Source of the DNA: a candidate division WOR-3 bacterium
GTDB lineage: Bacteria > Hydrothermota > Tepidihabitantia > SM23-42 > JAOAFX01
Length of the DNA: 43,032 nt
Direction of reading: 5' to 3'
Assembly (NCBI GenBank): GCA_039802145.1
Contig: JBDRWA010000002.1
Location: forward strand, 1-43,032
This document shows, in pieces, positions 4,257-43,032 of the stretch; positions within the stretch are counted from its first letter, which is position 1, and every line of letters starts with the position of its first letter. Made by a program: the position numbers and the translations under genes. The notes under the pieces are model-generated. The model did not search any database. It was not told the origin of the DNA and worked only from the letters and a program-made list of their open reading frames with translations.

Positions 4257-5849
4257 ATGCAGTTACGCGAAGAAATTCGTTTAAAAGGTATGAATTTTTC
4301 AAAGAGAAGCAGTATTGCAATTATGCTTTTCTGTATCCTGATTGAGTTGATTTTCTTATTCGGATATTTATTCAAATTCATGTATGTTCCTGTTCTTTTG
4401 CCCATAATTACTGCAGTTATATTCATTTATGCATTTGTTATTTTTAATCTTGTGCGCAGGAATATTTACTCTGCTCTATTCCCCTATAGTATCACTACTG
4501 TAACAATACTCGTTTTAACAGTATGTCTTGCCTTTGTAAATCCTCAAATTAGAATACCGTTTTTTATTATATACTTATATATCGCACTCCACCCTGCATA
4601 CCTCCTCGGTATAAAAAATGGACTATATGCTATTGTGCTGACAGATATTGCCTACGGAATAATGGTACTATTAACCCAGCATCTCTATCCAGAAGTAAAT
4701 CTGGGATTAGAGTTTACGAAACTCATATTTTTTACCTTTATAGCCTTTTTGCTCACCATTGATTTTGACCGTGATTTAGTCCGCTTGAGACGTTTCAGAA
4801 CATTGATGGGAGAAGTTGAAAAAGGAGATCTGACTGTGCGGTTTGAAGAAAAAAATGGTTCACCAGATGAAATATCTCTGCTTGGCAGAACAATTAACAG
4901 ACTTATATCGGCTGAGGCTGGTATTATAAAATTAATAATTGAAACATCACGGAACCTCAGTGAGATTGGAAGTCAAATTGCCTCTACTTCAAGTGAGCTT
5001 TCCACTGCAATTTCAGAAATCGTTTCTACAACTCAGAAAATGACAGAAGGTGTTGAACGTCAATATCAGGAACTTGATAAATCAATTTCTACAGGCAAAT
5101 CATTAAGTGAGATAAGTTTTGAGGTGGTCGACAATATCAAAAAAGTCGAAGGTTATGCAGATAATTTTGCCACAAGCGCAAGCGAGGGGTTGAGTCAGAG
5201 TGATATTATGATAAAAAATATTGAAATCATAGGAACCAGATATGAATACCTCATTAGTTTGATGACAAAATTATATGACGTATCAAACACCATTACTAAA
5301 ATTATTGAAACCATAAACAAAATCTCGGAGAAGATAAATATTCTCTCCCTTAATGCCTCTATTGAAGCGGCACGGGCAGGAGAGTTTGGTAAAGGATTTG
5401 TAATTGTTGCAGACGAAATAAAAAAACTTGCAGATAACACCCAAAATTCAGCAATGGAAATCGACGAAATTGTAAAAGAAATGATCGAATCTATCCGAAC
5501 CGTAGCAGAAAGCTCAGAAGAAGTCAGAAAAGCAATTGATGATGGGAACCATGTTGTTAAATCCACCACTAATTCATTGCGCACTATCTCCAGTGCAGTG
5601 ATAGAATTAAATACCGCAATAAAAAATATTAAAAATATAATTTCCCGAGAGGAAGAGGCAGTAACAAGTATATTAAAGCAAATTGAAGACTCATTTAATA
5701 TTTCAAAAGAAAACTCTACCGCTGCCGAACAGATACTTGCTTCGTTAGAAGAACAATCTGCTGCAACCGAGGAGTTTACAGCAACAGGGCAGGAACTGCT
5801 CAATATTACAAATAGATTGTCAAAGGTGATACAGAATTTTAAGGTCTGA
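4257..5849 (+). CDS. Methyl-accepting chemotaxis protein-like transducer (polytopic N-terminus, HAMP, MCP signalling domain)
   Basis: Start chosen at ATG 4257, after AGGAGG at 4245-4250. There are about six hydrophobic helices, a HAMP-like GDLTVRF...[13 protein letters not shown] segment and the conserved hairpin tip [30 protein letters not shown]. Confidence 0.85.
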
Positions 5850-7201
5850 TGGCTGATATCTTAATTGTTGAGGATAAAACGAGTTTCGCTGAAGTTCTGA
5901 AAATTGCACTTGATGAGGCAGGTTTTACAACACTGGTGGTAAAGAGTGGCCGTGAGGCAATCCAGGTTTTCAAGCGGGAGAAGATAAATCTTGTACTCCT
6001 GGATTTGCGTCTTCCTGATATTGACGGAATTGATGTTCTACGAGAATTGATCAACATTGACTCAGATGCAAAATTTATAATTATGACTGCATTTGGCACG
6101 ATAGAGAGGGCGGTGGAGGCAATGAAATTAGGTGCCTGTGATTTTCTTACCAAACCATTTGACACCGAACAGCTCATTCTTACAGTTAGAAAAATAATCC
6201 AAGAACAAAAGGCGCATTACGAGAACATTCTACTCAAAGAGATGGTTGAAAATATGCATGGCTTCCCTGAAATTGTGGGAACGAGTGAGGCCATAAAAAA
6301 ATCAATTGAATTGCTGAAAAAGGTTGCATCGACCGAGACAACTGTACTTTTCCTCGGCGAATCAGGTACTGGAAAAGAACTATTTGCAAGAGCCTGTCAT
6401 AGTCTATCGCCAAGGAAGGAGAATCCATTTGTTACGATTAACTGCGCTGCGATTCCAAGTGAATTACTTGAAAACGAACTCTTTGGCTCTGAAAAAGGTG
6501 CCTTCACCGGTGCGGTGGCACGAAAGATTGGCAAATTTGAACTTGCCCACAGAGGTACAATATTTCTTGATGAAGTGGGTGATCTGGGTCTTGATTTACA
6601 GGCAAAGTTATTAAGGGTACTGCAGGAAAAAACATTTGAACGTCTGGGTGGAACTACTTCAATAAAAGTTGATGTGCGAATTATTGCTGCGAGCAATAAA
6701 GACTTGAGTGCCCTAGTCAGCGAAAAAAAATTCCGTGAGGACCTTTATTACAGATTGAGTGTTTTTCCTATCACAATTCCCCCGCTCAGAAATAGGAAAG
6801 AAGATATTCCTTTGCTCGTTAAACACTTTTTAAGAAAATTGAAATCAAACAAGCAAATTTCAGAATCTGCACTGCAAAAATTAAGAGATTATGACTGGCC
6901 GGGAAATGTGAGGGAACTGGAAAATACAATTGAACGGGCGAATATTCTTTCTTCAGATGTAATAAATCCTGAACATATACTTTTACCTTTGCGGGCAAAA
7001 AAACTAATGGAAATTTCAATAGAAAATATGGATTTGAAATCTGCATCCAGTTATGGCAGAGAAATGGCTGAGGCAGAACTTATAAGAAAGACCCTGGAAC
7101 AGACCGAGTGGAACAAAGCAGAGACTGCAAGGAGACTTAGGGTATCATATAAGACACTGCTGAATAGAATTGCAAGATATAGACAGAAGGGACTACTGTA
7201 A
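5849..7201 (+). CDS. Sigma-54-dependent response regulator (NtrC family: receiver + AAA+ + Fis-type HTH)
   Basis: Receiver motif LVLLDLRLPD, Walker A GESGTGKE, the sigma54-contact loop GSEKGAFTGA, WPGNVRELEN, and a C-terminal HTH (AETARRLRVSYKTLLNRI). The start overlaps the upstream stop (TGATG). Confidence 0.92.
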   Translation: MADILIVEDKTSFAEVLKIALDEAGFTTLVVKSGREAIQVFKREKINLVLLDLRLPDIDGIDVLRELINIDSDAKFIIMTAFGTIERAVEAMKLGACDFLTKPFDTEQLILTVRKIIQEQKAHYENILLKEMVENMHGFPEIVGTSEAIKKSIELLKKVASTETTVLFLGESGTGKELFARACHSLSPRKENPFVTINCAAIPSELLENELFGSEKGAFTGAVARKIGKFELAHRGTIFLDEVGDLGLDLQAKLLRVLQEKTFERLGGTTSIKVDVRIIAASNKDLSALVSEKKFREDLYYRLSVFPITIPPLRNRKEDIPLLVKHFLRKLKSNKQISESALQKLRDYDWPGNVRELENTIERANILSSDVINPEHILLPLRAKKLMEISIENMDLKSASSYGREMAEAELIRKTLEQTEWNKAETARRLRVSYKTLLNRIARYRQKGLL

Positions 7202-38361: not shown

Positions 38362-38841
38362 ATGAACGGGAAGAATTCAATGTTGAAGATTTATAATTGT
38401 ATTTATACAAAGAAAAAAAATTTTTGTTTTCTACCACTTTTAATTTACTGTCTGATTGCCTTTCTGCATTATAACGCTGCCTGTAAGAATCCCCATAATT
38501 ACGAACCTTTTGATTCACTCTATCCGCCACCAGCACCTCCTATGCTTATTTTTCCTCCGAATGATACAGTAATTGTATATTACGAACCTTTCCCCCATGA
38601 TATAGCATTTGAATGGAATTCTGTTGAAGATGCTGAAAATTATCAATTACAGGTAGTAAATGATACTACTCAACTTTTAAATGCTCCAGTCATTAAAATT
38701 ACTGATACTTTAGCAATTTATACTTTAACGCGAAATAATCACTATTATTGGCGTGTTAGAGCTTATAATCCAAAATGGGAATGGTTTACTAATTGGTCTG
38801 AGACAAGGCATTTTTATGCTTATTATGAGGAGGCTAAATGA
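38362..38841 (+). CDS. Small putative lipoprotein with an FN3-like domain
   Basis: A signal peptide ending in a lipobox-like HYNAAC. The domain pattern PPNDT...FEWNSVEDAENYQLQV...YYWRVRAYN...WSETRHF is common in FCB secreted proteins. The start could instead be ATG 38380. Confidence 0.6.
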   Translation: MNGKNSMLKIYNCIYTKKKNFCFLPLLIYCLIAFLHYNAACKNPHNYEPFDSLYPPPAPPMLIFPPNDTVIVYYEPFPHDIAFEWNSVEDAENYQLQVVNDTTQLLNAPVIKITDTLAIYTLTRNNHYYWRVRAYNPKWEWFTNWSETRHFYAYYEEAK

Positions 38842-39698
38842 AAAATTTAAAATTAACCGAACCAATATTTTTAAGAAATTTAATGGTCTATCCTGTAAAA
38901 AATGGTGGAGACAATGGGAACTCAGAAATTGATACTATTGATAATCTTATTACTACGGGGAAGGCAAGTTTTTATGAACTTGCCACACCTGATGTAAACA
39001 AAATCGTTTTTGATAACAAGGGTGATTCTCCCGTGCTGATGATTGATGGTGAAGAAATAACCGGTTCTATGCAGAACCGCATAATTGCGCAATCATTCAT
39101 TGCTGAACCACATTCCCGAAGTCAAATACCAGTGATATGCGCCGAAGAGAAAAGATGGGAAGAAATTGGTGGATTCAGAACGGGCTATTGTTCATATCCG
39201 AGAATTCGCTCCATTCTTGCATCTTCGGACAGTAAAAAAACTGATACCCAGCATCAAGTATGGAAAGAAATTGATAGGAAATTGACAATCACCAGGACAA
39301 AATCAAAAACCTCATCTATGCATGAAATATTTGACAATCTTAACGATGAGATTGAACGGTATGTTGAGGGATTTGAAGGGCTAAATCACAATACAGTCGG
39401 ATTTTTGGGTGTTGCCGGCAATACTATACTTGGTTGTGATATATTCGCTTCTTCTGAAATATATCATAAATTTGAAAAGAAATTATTGCGCAGTTATGCA
39501 CTGGATGCAATTGAATACCAACAGATTAGAGGAAATTGCCCTGATGTGAAGAATTTCTTTGATAAACTAATAAAGACAATAACCGAAAATGAACTTAAAC
39601 AGAAACCAGGAAACAGGAGAATAAAAGGAAGAAAGTTAGTCGGGCAGATGGTTTTTTATAAAAATGCCCCTGTGCATATCTCTGCATTTCCGGGTTAA
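38838..39698 (+). CDS. ARPP-1 (formerly DUF6569, as I recall) family protein, function unknown
   Basis: LMVYPV near the N-terminus, PVLMIDGEEITGSMQNRIIAQSFIAEPHSRSQIPVICAEEKRWE, QHQVWKEID and LLRSYALDAI match the family core I remember (GEEL.GAKQNR ... PVSCVE.GRW ... VW.EV). ATGA overlap with the lipoprotein gene. Confidence 0.6.
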   Translation: MKNLKLTEPIFLRNLMVYPVKNGGDNGNSEIDTIDNLITTGKASFYELATPDVNKIVFDNKGDSPVLMIDGEEITGSMQNRIIAQSFIAEPHSRSQIPVICAEEKRWEEIGGFRTGYCSYPRIRSILASSDSKKTDTQHQVWKEIDRKLTITRTKSKTSSMHEIFDNLNDEIERYVEGFEGLNHNTVGFLGVAGNTILGCDIFASSEIYHKFEKKLLRSYALDAIEYQQIRGNCPDVKNFFDKLIKTITENELKQKPGNRRIKGRKLVGQMVFYKNAPVHISAFPG

Positions 39699-39709
39699 AA
39701 TGAAGAAGT

Positions 39710-39830
39710 ACATCAGAAAATCAGGGTATCAGAATGAAGCATATAAGAATATCTGAGTATCAGGGTGTTCCCCTCTCGCTATTCTGTTACATCGGTGACC
39801 ACTTTCTGATAGTCTGATTTCCTGATAACC
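39710..39830. repeat. Long-range inverted repeat made of 8-nt-phased ATCAG (x3) and CTGAT (x3) units
   Basis: ATCAG at 39712, 39720 and 39728. CTGAT at 39806, 39814 and 39822. The arms 39711-39734 and 39804-39828 are complementary at about 20 of 23 positions. ATCAGGGT is also directly repeated at 39720 and 39759. Confidence 0.8.
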
Positions 39831-39836
39831 TAACCT

Positions 39837-42347
39837 ATGCTTCTAAAAAAACTCGGTAAATACGAAATCATTGAATGGCTCGGCGGGGGCAGGTTCGGCG
39901 ATGTCTTCCTCGCCTATGATACAATCCTTGAAACCCAATTTGCCTTAAAGATTTCAAGAATGCGTAAAGAAGAGATTGTCATGCTCAAAGACGAAGCAAA
40001 ACTCCTTGCTTCTTTAAATCATCCCAATATCGTTCGTTTTTATAATATAGATTTCATTGAAAATAAATTCGTCCTGGTGATGGAGTACATAAAAGGCAGG
40101 ACCTTAAGGGAAGTCATTAAAGAAGGGGGCATTGAGATAAATGAATTCTTAAATATTGCCCAGCAGATACTTGATGGAATAAATTATGCACATAAGATCG
40201 GTGTGCTCCATCGTGATTTAAAACCTGAGAATATCTTAATAACAGAAAATAACACAATCAAGATAACTGATTTCGGACTTGCCCGTTTTTTAAAGACCGG
40301 CTCAATTGCGGCATCAACTGCCGGCACGCCAATCTATATGGCACCCGAGGTTTGGTCGGGAAAATTCAGCGAGAAGTCTGATATCTGGAGTATCGGTGTT
40401 ATCTTTTATGAACTACTCACCGGCATCCCGCCTTTTCTTGATGATAACCTTGATGGTTTAAAAAAGAAGATTGAAAAGAGCAAGTTGTTAATTCCGAGTA
40501 TGATAAGACCAAATCTACCTGGATACCTTGAAGATATTATCATAAAATGCCTTAATACAAATCCTGAATTAAGACCTGATTCAGAAGCAATAACGAAAAT
40601 TTTAAAGAAACAAACAAAAGGTATAAAAATTGAGTCAACGATAGGTGTCCCTGAAAAGAAGAAAGGTGAATTAAAATTGACCCCGGACCAGGAGCAGATA
40701 ATAAACAACCTTGATGGCAAAATACTTGTTCTGGGACAGGCGGGTTGCGGTAAGACTACAAGCCTTGTCTATGGAATTTTAAAACTCATTGAGAAAGGTA
40801 TTCCACCATCGCGTATCCTTGTCTGTGCATTTACCAATAAAGCAGCAAATGATATAAAGACACGACTGAGCCAGTTTGTTCCGTCGCCCCAGTATGACTT
40901 TTGGATTGGCACATTCCACACCGTTGCCCTAAGAATTCTTCGTCGCGATTGCGAACGGCTTGATATCTGTGAAGATTTCATTATTGAAGAACCAAGAAAA
41001 ATATTTCCATTATTGAAGACTGAAACCGGAAAGTATAAAATGAATGCGATAATCAGAACGATCGAAATACTCAAGGCAAAAGGAATTACCCCGGAAAAAT
41101 TTGCACCGGCAAATGAATGGCAGAAGGTCTGTCTCAAAATTTATAAAGAATATCAGCAGTACCTGAAAGATAACAATATTCTTGATTATGACGACCTGAT
41201 TATTTATGCCACAAAGTTATTAGAAGAATATCAAGATCTACGGGAACATTATCAAAGTATGTTTGAATATATCTTCGTTGACGAACTCCAGGACATAAAT
41301 CCGGCCCAGTATAAATTTATCTCCCTGCTGGTAAAAGATAACTTTTTCTTTACCGGTGATGAAGATCAAGCAATATATGGCTGGCGTGGCGCAAGCAAAG
41401 ATTTCATTTACCGGGTTGCCCGGGATTTCAAAGATGTAAAAATATTCCATCTCAATCGCAGTTTCCGCCTTCCCCAATCAATACTTGAAATTGCCAATAA
41501 TTTGATGCAGCGAGAAACGACCGCCATTCCTAACTTAGAAACCGGTGATGTGATTTTCTATGTGGCGGATTCAATAAACGACGAAATTGATTATATTGTT
41601 AAAGAAATAAAAGACCTTGTAGAACTGGATTTTTCTTATCGCGATATTGTCATTCTTTATCGTATGAATTACCTTGGCAAAAGTTATGAAGAAGGATTCA
41701 CAAAGGCAGGCATTCCCTTCACCACCATTCGCGGCACAACATTTTATGAGAAAGAAGAATTCAAGTCAATCATAGAATACCTTGAATTTTTAAATATCTG
41801 CAGATCTGCTGAAATATCTCAAGAATCTATCACCCAAGGGGTTTCTATATTCAGAGTCACAAAGAGCGTGCAAAATAAATTGGAGAAGATTGTTGAATGC
41901 CATCTCCAGAATCTAAATGTATTATCACCCTACACCATTATCAATGAATTGGTCAGCATTTTGAAATTGAAATCGGAAAACCTCGAAGAATTTTTAAGCT
42001 TTGCCCAGAACTATTCGGAAGCAGGAATCGGTAAATTCCTGAGCGATCTGAAATTGTTTCAGGAAATGGATTTGGCAGATTGGACAAAGAATACCATTAA
42101 GTTAATGACGGTCCACAGTGCCAAGGGAATGGAATTTCCTGTGGTATTTGTCGTGGACCTGGTAGAAGAGATATTCCCTATGACAAAGAGTCTATCAGAG
42201 CCAAGAGACCTTGAAGAAGAAAGAAGACTCTGCTATGTGGCAGTCACCCGTGCCCAGAAAAGACTCTATCTTCTATATCCCAAATACCGCTCGGGCAGAC
42301 AGCAATTACCATCAAGATTTTTGATTGACATGCTGAGAAAAAGATAA
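39837..42347 (+). CDS. Fusion protein: N-terminal Hanks-type Ser/Thr protein kinase + C-terminal UvrD/Rep-type SF1 helicase
   Basis: Kinase motifs: LGGGRFGDV, FALKI (Lys38), HRDLKPENIL, DFGLAR, GTPIYMAPE and DIWSIGV. Helicase motifs: Walker A GQAGCGKTT, CAFTNKAANDI, VDELQDINPAQ, FFTGDEDQAIYGWRGA, LNRSFRLPQ, MTVHSAKGMEFPVVFV and RLCYVAVTRAQKRLYL. Confidence 0.9.
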   Translation: MLLKKLGKYEIIEWLGGGRFGDVFLAYDTILETQFALKISRMRKEEIVMLKDEAKLLASLNHPNIVRFYNIDFIENKFVLVMEYIKGRTLREVIKEGGIEINEFLNIAQQILDGINYAHKIGVLHRDLKPENILITENNTIKITDFGLARFLKTGSIAASTAGTPIYMAPEVWSGKFSEKSDIWSIGVIFYELLTGIPPFLDDNLDGLKKKIEKSKLLIPSMIRPNLPGYLEDIIIKCLNTNPELRPDSEAITKILKKQTKGIKIESTIGVPEKKKGELKLTPDQEQIINNLDGKILVLGQAGCGKTTSLVYGILKLIEKGIPPSRILVCAFTNKAANDIKTRLSQFVPSPQYDFWIGTFHTVALRILRRDCERLDICEDFIIEEPRKIFPLLKTETGKYKMNAIIRTIEILKAKGITPEKFAPANEWQKVCLKIYKEYQQYLKDNNILDYDDLIIYATKLLEEYQDLREHYQSMFEYIFVDELQDINPAQYKFISLLVKDNFFFTGDEDQAIYGWRGASKDFIYRVARDFKDVKIFHLNRSFRLPQSILEIANNLMQRETTAIPNLETGDVIFYVADSINDEIDYIVKEIKDLVELDFSYRDIVILYRMNYLGKSYEEGFTKAGIPFTTIRGTTFYEKEEFKSIIEYLEFLNICRSAEISQESITQGVSIFRVTKSVQNKLEKIVECHLQNLNVLSPYTIINELVSILKLKSENLEEFLSFAQNYSEAGIGKFLSDLKLFQEMDLADWTKNTIKLMTVHSAKGMEFPVVFVVDLVEEIFPMTKSLSEPRDLEEERRLCYVAVTRAQKRLYLLYPKYRSGRQQLPSRFLIDMLRKR

Positions 42348-42427
42348 CCATCGCAATATATTTCATCGCGGTTAGAAACCGCTCCTACCATACTATAATC
42401 CCATAAATGTAGGACAAACCTTTAGAG

Positions 42428-42600
42428 GCTGTGTCGCAATGTCATTGCGCGCGAATGAAATGAGCGAAGCAATCGCATCCTGTAATCCCCCTTTAAAAAG
42501 GGGGGAAGAGGGGAATTGAGATTGCCACGCCCGCCAGGCTACCCGGCGTGCTTGCAATGACGACATTGGGTTACAACGCCACTCCCATACCAGCACCCCA
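42428..42600. repeat. G+C-rich intergenic element made of several palindromes
   Basis: CGCAATGTCATTGCG (42435-42449), CCCCCTTTAAAAAGGGGGG (42487-42505) and CACGCC...GGCGTG (42526-42550). The related strings GCAATGTCATTG and GCAATGACGACATTG also occur. The composition differs clearly from the flanks. Confidence 0.65.
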
Positions 42601-42751
42601 ACCAACAACTATTACTTATCCTTTTCCATTTCCCTCAAATACTTCACCGAATCTCCTCAAAACCTCTTTGCCAACCGGGTCATAGATTTATCATTTTTAC
42701 AATTGTCAAAATGATAAAATGATAACAGAAAAAAACCAATGAGAATTCCTT

Positions 42752-43032
42752 TTATCGCATAATTAACAACTTCTGAGTTTTTGACTCATGCATGCCTTCA
42801 AGGATTAGGAAGTAGACCCCGGAACTGAGATGGGATGAATCTAATCTGCAAGAATGTACACCAGGCTCAAAAATACCTTCGGAAATTGTTGCAATCTTTC
42901 TACCGAGAATATCATAAAGATTTAAACTGATATGCTGTTTTTCAGGAATTGCATATTGAACTCGGGCATTATCTCTCACCACACTCGGCAAGACCATCAA
43001 CTTTATCTTTTCACCTTCCACCTTTAATCTAT
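42752..43032 (-). CDS. C-terminal end of a secreted protein with a T9SS (Por) C-terminal sorting domain; the 5' part lies outside the window
   Basis: ISLNLYDILGRKIATISEGIFEPGVHSCRLDSSHLSSGVYFLILEG matches the T9SS CTD pattern. The ORF is open to the window end. Confidence 0.7.
   Translation of the reverse strand, partial: RLKVEGEKIKLMVLPSVVRDNARVQYAIPEKQHISLNLYDILGRKIATISEGIFEPGVHSCRLDSSHLSSGVYFLILEGMHESKTQKLLIMR

Follow-up and report, generated by a model that had tools for sequence, protein, structure and literature searches.

The stretch of DNA analysed here (positions 1 to 43,032 of contig JBDRWA010000002.1, assembly GCA_039802145.1, from a candidate division WOR-3 bacterium; called the window in the following) carries a gene for a single polypeptide of 836 amino acids (aa) in which a Hanks-type Ser/Thr kinase is joined to a complete helicase of the PcrA/UvrD/Rep type. 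The gene consists of one open reading frame (ORF) with intact catalytic motifs in both halves, the fusion is old and under purifying selection, and the gene is found in housekeeping surroundings and linked to a gene of the ARPP-1 family. As judged from sequence comparison, the fusion family appears to be conserved and vertically inherited across WOR-3/Hydrothermota. Kinase and helicase domains are each well known, but the literature searched describes neither the conserved family joining them nor the association of this family with an ARPP subfamily of its own. We tentatively propose that the cytoplasmic kinase-helicase and the ARPP may belong to a chromosomal, vertically inherited pathway of DNA maintenance or surveillance in WOR-3 and related bacteria. 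The public annotation, 'UvrD-helicase domain-containing protein', conceals the kinase. The features of the locus are:

39837..42347, plus strand: kinase-helicase fusion gene, single 836-aa ORF with ATG start
39837..40610, plus strand: Hanks-type Ser/Thr kinase domain, residues 1-258, an RD kinase
40611..40676, plus strand: interdomain linker, residues 259-280, poorly conserved
40677..42347, plus strand: SF1A helicase of the PcrA/UvrD/Rep type, residues 281-836 plus stop codon
41754-42071, plus strand: 2B-like insert of the helicase, about residues 640-745
38838-39698, plus strand: ARPP-1 gene (PF20208 / DUF6569), 286 aa, directly upstream of the fusion gene
39699..39836, plus strand: spacer between the ARPP-1 and fusion genes, 138 nucleotides (nt), variable between close relatives
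Kinase motifs, read in the translation: G-loop LGGGRFGDV (15-23); FALK with K38; E53; HRDLKPEN (125-132); DFG (145-147); GTPIYMAPE (163-171); R246
Helicase motifs, read in the translation: Q285; GQAGCGKT (300-307); TFTNKAA (331-337); DELQD (482-486); TGDEDQAIYGWRGA (506-519); SFR (542-544); HSAKGMEF (760-767); EEERRLCYVAVTRA (794-807)

A kinase and a helicase in one polypeptide

The translation of the fusion gene contains neither internal stops nor frameshifts, and its start codon is assigned correctly, because the homologues begin with the identical sequence MLLKKLGKYEI. The original prediction, made from the sequence of the window, had proposed one polypeptide rather than two adjacent genes and had described the kinase as active-looking and the helicase as full on the strength of a list of motifs. 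The frame is indeed unbroken over all 836 codons, every motif named there is found in the translation, and the completeness of the motifs and their invariance in homologues make catalytic competence of both halves probable. A chimeric assembly or an overlooked stop between two genes, which had been named as an outcome that would overturn this interpretation, is ruled out: full-length fusions of 830-913 aa are present on >150 independent contigs from NCBI, JGI, ENA and Logan, megabase contigs among them, and neither the window nor any of 14 fetched loci shows a break in the frame. The probability of such an artefact is therefore practically nil.

The kinase half matches Pfam Pkinase (PF00069) over residues 9-252 with E = 1.2e-59 and 202.3 bits (cut-off 31.7) and contains all expected catalytic residues, namely G16-G21, K38, E53, D127, N132, D145, E171 and R246. 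The predicted structure has the bilobal kinase fold and fits PknB kinase-domain structures with TM-scores of 0.74-0.88 at ~29-34% identity. Among 17 homologues with 48-73% identity to the window protein, the catalytic positions do not vary in either half, and the same holds across 11 lineages, the most divergent ones included. Compared with the closest relative (94% nucleotide identity), the ratio of non-synonymous to synonymous substitution rates (dN/dS) amounts to 0.056 in the kinase half and 0.077 in the helicase half. A pseudokinase was rejected in view of the invariant catalytic residues and the low dN/dS of this half. The fusion protein contains no transmembrane segment, PASTA repeats or other sensor domain, which leaves the helicase as the sole candidate input module of the kinase.

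The helicase half is recognized by Pfam UvrD-helicase at residues 281-532 (3.8e-63, 214.1 bits, cut-off 23) and by UvrD_C in a match reaching residue 815 (1.3e-44, 153.5 bits, cut-off 25.6). The set of motifs Q, I, Ia, II, III, IV, V and VI is complete, and the invariant positions comprise Q285, G300-T307, D482-D486, G507-A519, F543, R544, H760-G764 and E794-R805. A phmmer search of the PDB aligns the protein to PcrA (1pjr, 3.8e-90) over PcrA residues 12-402 and 507-639. The unbroken first segment indicates that subdomains 1A, 1B and 2A are complete, and subdomain 2B is present, shorter by about 45-50 aa than in PcrA as judged from the same alignment. The original prediction had taken the accessory domains 1B and 2B to be probably reduced, which proves correct for 2B and wrong for 1B. 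Beyond residue 639 of the 724 in PcrA nothing is aligned, so that the fusion protein lacks a counterpart of the last ~85 residues; it terminates 30 residues behind motif VI without any extension beyond the PSRF end of 2A. The C-terminal, Tudor-like domain for interaction with RNA polymerase known from PcrA and UvrD is thus absent. The short length of the helicase half is therefore explained by the loss of the ~85 C-terminal residues together with the trimming of 2B by 45-50 aa. A four-subdomain fold (1A/1B/2A/2B) is predicted for this half, as Foldseek fits the model to PcrA, UvrD and Rep with TM-scores of 0.56-0.75 over 611-658 columns. Among the NCBIfam models PcrA (TIGR01073) gives the best match with 392.6 bits, far below its equivalog cut-off of 911.2, and the UvrD model (TIGR01075) reaches 319.9 against a cut-off of 1144. 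The closest stand-alone helicases are PcrA of Bacillota and proteins from metagenomes.

The AlphaFold2 model of the fusion protein (mean predicted local distance difference test [pLDDT] of 79.7, predicted TM-score [pTM] of 0.56) consists of two well-folded halves and a disordered linker, with pLDDT values <50 at residues 260-276 and variable columns in the alignment of homologues. The activation loop of the kinase (residues 148-162) is also disordered in the model. No solved chain in the PDB spans both halves, as judged by Foldseek. At the DNA level, scans for promoters and terminators and against Rfam gave nothing meaningful for the locus; a sub-threshold match to RF03531 ('Clostridioides difficile sRNA included into helicase gene') at 42185-42284, at 31 bits (gathering score 65), most likely reflects the conserved coding DNA of the helicase (2A domain including motif VI) and not an RNA gene.

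A search among 5.8 billion proteins returned >115 clusters (90% identity) of full-length homologues with 831-859 aa and 48-100% identity to the window protein, and of those with a name nearly all come from candidate division WOR-3 or TA06; the contigs encoding four of the full-length homologues are 1.9-2.8 Mb in size. When 1.84 billion representatives were searched with a profile, the result was ~35 clusters (50% identity) of full-length fusions with 830-913 aa, followed by unrelated giant proteins with multiple kinase domains and then by canonical PcrA and UvrD proteins matching the helicase half only. The named members of this wider family are assigned by label to WOR-3 or Hydrothermota/Hydrothermales, and a few metagenome-assembled genomes with the fusion are labelled Aquificota, Thermosulfidibacter, Synergistetes or 'bacterium JZ-2024'. 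In a scan of genome contigs with the HRDLKPEN pattern, the family members among the matches listed were locus L004 and the Acidobacteriota-type locus L070. Neighbour-joining trees of the kinase and helicase halves are largely congruent, indicating a single old fusion which has diverged as a unit. A 960-aa type from Acidobacteriota (L070, P0306) forms the outgroup in both trees and may represent a separate fusion. The closest relative of the window protein, encoded at locus L094, is 96% identical. The original prediction knew of no characterized example and regarded its case as open to revision if the architecture turned out to be common and already described: full-text searches of the literature gave no description of such a protein, and the architecture itself is widespread and conserved in WOR-3/Hydrothermota.

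The adjoining ARPP-1 gene and the genomic surroundings

The gene directly upstream, which the original prediction overlooked, is the strongest contextual clue. Its product matches PF20208 with 8.8e-59 and 199.7 bits and is also called DUF6569 by NCBI. An ARPP gene adjoins the fusion gene on the same strand in 11 of the 14 lineages examined (the window, L001, L002, L084, L086, L088, L094, L092, L004, L095 and L096), the two genes overlapping by 4 nt at one extreme and lying about 140 nt apart at the other, with a single exception of 1023 nt in L094; the order is inverted in L004, where the fusion gene precedes that of the ARPP. The outer flanks of the pair are unrelated and contain genes for a TonB-dependent receptor, a PAS response regulator, TsaB-RimI, a nitroreductase or an AMP-binding enzyme. 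The spacer of the window has nothing in common with its counterpart in L094, and in the other lineages the two genes overlap by up to 4 nt or are separated by at most about 90 nt.

A scan of metagenome contigs with an ARPP alignment recovered 80 loci, which split cleanly into two groups. All 17 loci with an ARPP of the same subfamily as in the window (at least 339 bits with the ARPP profile) contain an adjoining kinase-helicase gene, either behind the ARPP gene (15 loci) or in front of it (two loci), whereas the ARPPs of the remaining 63 loci score at 156-215 bits and none of them is directly adjacent to a fusion gene. The pairwise identities of the ARPPs and the fusion proteins are correlated with r = 0.97. 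The ARPP of the window retains the family-wide residues G71, E72, E73, Q79, R81, C101, E103, R106, W107, Q138, W142, S156 and T158; among the family-wide residues, Q79, R81, R124, Q138, W142, S156, T158 and G188 lie outside the patterns used for scanning. The kinase-linked clade is characterized by P121, S160 and H162, which are always present in the linked ARPPs, whereas the non-linked ones mostly have Ala, Ser or Gly at position 121, Ala at 160 and Ser or Ala at 162. At position 160, Ser is found in 17/17 linked loci and Ala in 58/63 of the others. Ser160 is located close to the family-wide S156 and T158 and is a tentative candidate for phosphorylation. S156 and T158 themselves were rejected as kinase-specific phospho-acceptors, as they are also conserved in the ARPP clades not linked to a kinase. 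The AlphaFold2 model of the ARPP has a pLDDT of 81 and a pTM of 0.84; it gave no fold match in the PDB at E <0.1 (best E = 0.17), and no sequence match was found there either.

Some loci show peculiarities around the pair. In L094 the region between the ARPP and fusion genes (4978-6000) contains a gene for a 180-aa IS200-like Y1 transposase (5233-5775), bordered on both sides by arrays of ~32-nt palindromic repeats (CGCAGTAGCAAGCTACTGCACTCCATTCTTCT and GGAGTGCATCAGCTTGCTGATGCTCCTTTCCCC), and looks like an element of the REP/RAYT type. In L004 (1225-6042) the fusion and ARPP genes are followed by genes for a PLD-family nuclease with an OB-like tail and a class-I glutamine amidotransferase, with three close-packed junctions behind the fusion gene (an 8-nt gap and two 4-nt overlaps), which looks like a larger operon adding a nuclease. 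Locus L229 (5980-8715) contains an ARPP of the non-linked type and, 0.8 kb downstream, a separate Pkinase ORF running off the contig end, which could represent an unfused or independently fused arrangement.

Other ARPP clades occur in different company. The gene of an RtcR-like sigma-54 activator precedes that of a non-linked ARPP at seven loci (e.g. L198:1264-4505), and in L215 (1039-5543) and L225 the adjoining gene codes for an SF1B helicase of 1139 aa that also contains a RecB-like nuclease domain. The gene string of L185 (910-9739) comprises RmuC, ARPP, an AddB-like PD-(D/E)XK nuclease and a UvrD-type helicase, and in L202 a UvrD-type helicase is encoded 3.4 kb from the ARPP gene on the opposite strand. 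ARPPs of other clades beside SF1 helicases or nucleases thus indicate a recurring combination, of which the pairing with the kinase-helicase is one sharply defined variant.

The window as a whole represents an ordinary piece of chromosome over its 43 kb, with genes for an aminotransferase, ThiC, a chemoreceptor, a sigma-54 activator, GH57, HypF, DNA polymerase I, Asd, AccD, a class A penicillin-binding protein and a TonB-dependent receptor. The related loci are similar; Pol I, ThiC, TsaB/RimI and FolC-like genes are the housekeeping genes that flank the fusion gene in this set of loci, the window included. A 159-aa ORF with a hydrophobic N-terminus (38362-38841) overlaps the start of the ARPP gene by 4 nt (ATGA) and has no match in Pfam, NCBIfam or PADLOC. 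Relatives of it follow the gene of the TonB-dependent receptor in L002/L003, ORFs of similar size are found there in L088 and L094, and in L001 a relative lies downstream of the fusion gene. This ORF seems to belong with the TonB-dependent receptor rather than with the ARPP, and it was rejected as a third component because it travels with the former and not with the latter. Behind the fusion gene follow ~400 nt of non-coding DNA (42348-42751), in a region with a G+C content of 0.42 (42001-43000) versus ~0.36 elsewhere, and a near-perfect 16-nt palindrome is present at 42687-42718 (TTTATCATTTTTACAA / TTGTCAAAATGATAAA). A DedA/VTT-domain gene is located downstream of the fusion gene on the opposite strand in most relatives, and is missing from this place in the window and L094. 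The WOR-3-type locus L093 (9692-11668) and the Acidobacteriota-type locus L070 (10959-15244) both encode S-adenosylmethionine decarboxylase and spermidine synthase immediately behind the fusion gene, which may be due to chance or to a link with polyamine metabolism. In the divergent lineage L096 (8865-9560), a gene for endonuclease V, an enzyme for the repair of deaminated bases, is found beside the fusion gene on the opposite strand.

Possible function and competing explanations

If the proposed role in DNA maintenance or surveillance is correct, the PcrA-derived SF1A motor would serve as the nucleic-acid-binding module of an active Hanks Ser/Thr kinase and would load on single-stranded DNA or 3'-tailed junctions. 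PknB-type Hanks kinases are activated through dimerisation and trans-autophosphorylation. When two or more molecules are present on one DNA, the kinase domains might meet, phosphorylate each other in trans and thus become active, as is the case for PknB and YabT. Activation by co-loading on DNA is proposed because the only possible sensor of the kinase is a DNA motor with a trimmed 2B subdomain and without its anchor to RNA polymerase. SF1A monomers translocate on single-stranded DNA in the 3' to 5' direction and are turned into helicases by dimerisation via 2B (PMC13365976). Self-association of the fusion protein could likewise convert the motor from a translocase to a helicase, either in support of or in place of the contacts between 2B subdomains through which UvrD, Rep and PcrA dimerise and are activated. 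The active kinase would then phosphorylate partners at the DNA site, with the ARPP, a predicted enzyme, as first candidate; the ARPP would recognize or process the lesion or DNA end worked on by the motor. The original prediction had suggested a kinase that either responds to the engagement of the helicase or autoregulates the motor, which is plausible. DNA as the substrate, dimerisation as the activation step and the targets of the kinase are what we infer from these features.

Several observations weigh against this proposal. In three lineages (L090, L091 and L093) and in the Acidobacteriota type L070, the fusion gene occurs without an adjoining ARPP gene, so the ARPP is not obligatory, at least in cis. 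A transposase element parts the two genes in the closest relative, L094, and the correlated divergence of the two proteins is to be expected for any two vertically inherited neighbours. No structural match of the ARPP confirms a DNA-related chemistry, and the substrate could be RNA or R-loops. Finally, an AlphaFold interface between the domains, which the original prediction had suggested looking for, did not emerge: with a pTM of 0.56 and a linker at pLDDT <50, the model contains no confident arrangement of kinase and helicase and leaves a coupling interface unsupported.

The main rival interpretation regards the protein as a housekeeping PcrA/UvrD with roles in excision repair, mismatch repair, RecA removal and replication-transcription conflicts, in which the kinase has replaced the RNA-polymerase-binding domain and serves as a cis-regulatory or dimerisation module without signalling, whereas the link to the ARPP is secondary. 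This is a serious candidate, if an unlikely one. It agrees with the higher similarity of the helicase half to PcrA than to all other models, the annotation of the closest stand-alone relatives as PcrA, the conservation of the gene across the phylum with its presence on the four contigs of 1.9-2.8 Mb, the housekeeping genes around it, the missing C-terminal domain and shortened 2B, and the three lineages without an adjoining ARPP; on the other hand, it leaves the strict pairing with a separate ARPP subfamily (17/17 loci) unexplained, the score of 392.6 is far below the PcrA equivalog cut-off of 911, and sequence conservation is higher still in the kinase than in the helicase half, beyond the needs of a mere dimerisation handle. 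An extended version of the preferred proposal, in which the fusion protein would be both the only UvrD/PcrA-type helicase of the phylum and a checkpoint kinase for DNA damage or replication stress, with the ARPP as a new lesion-reactive enzyme under phospho-control (e.g. at Ser160), is rather improbable. The DNA motor would then detect aberrant DNA and switch on local Ser/Thr phosphorylation, following a logic like that of DNA-PK/ATR or SMG1-UPF1, and Cys101 of the ARPP might link covalently to a damaged sugar, as SRAP/HMCES does. The 43-kb window contains no second UvrD-type gene.

A function in defence or one directed at RNA is less probable. An anti-phage or conflict system would consist of a GajB-like helicase sensing foreign DNA ends, a kinase effector shutting down the cell or phage in the manner of Stk2 and PD-T4-6, and the ARPP as a further component. 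The PADLOC models for GajB, the DRT helicase, mad6 and PD-T4-6 do all match, but these are generic single-domain matches, PcrA outscores GajB, and the matches to MAD6 (200.4 versus a cut-off of 460) and PglW (98.9 versus 990) cover only the kinase domain; single-domain matches of this kind, together with NCBIfam scores far below the cut-offs, argue against a mobile defence island. The description of ARPPs in conflict systems centred on ADP-ribosylglycohydrolase (ARG) (PMC9503650), the PLD-type nuclease behind the ARPP in L004 and the helicase-nucleases adjoining other ARPP clades would suit a defence function, yet the window holds no GajA, methyltransferase or PglX/Z partner, and a gene for the GajA OLD/TOPRIM nuclease is not adjacent in any of 15 contexts, the neighbours in the window being the TonB-dependent receptor, the 159-aa ORF and ARPP-1. 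Moreover, the synteny with housekeeping genes is kept across homologues with 48-100% identity, the domain trees are congruent, dN/dS is low, and the IMG/VR viral contigs contain no full-length fusion, only kinase-only or helicase-only matches. A defence island was rejected on the basis of the generic PADLOC matches, the absent partners, the NCBIfam scores below cut-off, the conserved synteny and the single-domain nature of the viral matches, and we consider a role in defence improbable. The chances of a motor acting on RNA or RNA-DNA hybrids, which would place the pair in an RNA-repair or R-loop pathway with the kinase reporting RNA damage, appear slim. PcrA/UvrD is reported to suppress R-loops (PMC8318588), RtcR, whose relatives accompany the seven ARPP loci of the other clade, regulates RNA repair, and those who described the ARPPs tied them to ribose and ADP-ribose chemistry (PMC9503650). 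However, no RNA-repair genes (RtcA/B, ligases) are found beside the fusion gene in the 15 contexts, and the solved relatives are all DNA helicases.

Returning to the proposed DNA-maintenance pathway, the fusion protein should be of interest as a natural system for examining how the engagement of DNA might be converted by a bacterium into signalling through phosphorylation. The activation of SF1A enzymes by self-association is a second question to which it is relevant, as the 2B dimerisation domain is trimmed and a second dimerisation-capable domain is added. The ARPP gains its first conserved enzymatic partner outside of ADP-ribose systems, and its recurrence beside SF1 helicases and nucleases narrows the search for its substrate to nucleic acids.

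Comparison with known systems

The fusion protein shares all motifs and the predicted four-subdomain fold with PcrA, UvrD and Rep (PDB 1pjr, 2is1, 1uaa and 9dci), to which it is ~27-32% identical over ~615-630 aligned columns. It differs from them by the additional N-terminal kinase, by scores well under the equivalog cut-offs and by a 2B subdomain shorter by ~45-50 aa, 2B being the part that mediates activating dimerisation (PMC13365976). PcrA and UvrD bind RNA polymerase through their C-terminal domain (PMC3797733, PMC5397179), and this Tudor-like domain is lacking in the fusion protein. With the kinases of the PknB/Stk1 type it has in common the kinase fold, the RD character and Ser/Thr residues in the activation loop, whereas it contains neither a transmembrane segment nor PASTA domains and scores 222 with the NCBIfam model PknB_PASTA_kin, against a cut-off of 450. 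The strong hidden Markov model matches to Gabija GajB, PD-T4-6, MADS Mad6 and BREX PglW are due to common domains; in contrast to these systems, the fusion gene has no partner genes, stays below the curated cut-offs, and is vertically inherited in housekeeping surroundings.

ARPP has been described as an orphan fold in which one Cys and one Gln are conserved without exception; it is predicted to act on sugar moieties and is known from ARG-centred conflict systems and from pairs with HIRAN, WYL or the PF01522 deacetylase (Iyer, Burroughs, Anantharaman and Aravind, 2022; PMC9503650). Neither UvrD nor a protein kinase is mentioned in that paper, and the contexts with RmuC/AddB-like/UvrD, the SF1B helicase-nuclease and RtcR are not listed among its gene pairs; beyond it, full-text searches for DUF6569, PF20208 and 'ARPP-1 family' gave nothing, and no further description of ARPP was found in the literature. 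The protein in the window is a true ARPP-1 with the invariant C101 and Q79, and its gene forms a tight two-gene arrangement like the published pairs with HIRAN or WYL. The partner differs, being a kinase-helicase and none of the ARG system, HIRAN, WYL or PF01522; no ARG or rhodanese-phosphatase gene is located nearby, and the linked ARPPs form a subfamily of their own.

Bacterial DNA repair is generally regarded as being under mainly transcriptional control (SOS), and cases of Ser/Thr phosphorylation, such as that of YabT, are scattered. YabT of Bacillus subtilis is a Hanks kinase which undergoes DNA-dependent trans-autophosphorylation and phosphorylates RecA and SsbA (PMC3708118, PMC6333020). 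Being a Hanks kinase without an extracellular sensor like the fusion protein, it provides the closest functional analogy for a bacterial Ser/Thr kinase switched by DNA, with no orthology implied. YabT is anchored in the membrane and contacts DNA by a short basic juxtamembrane stretch, whereas the fusion protein is soluble and carries a complete ATP-driven motor as its DNA-binding part.

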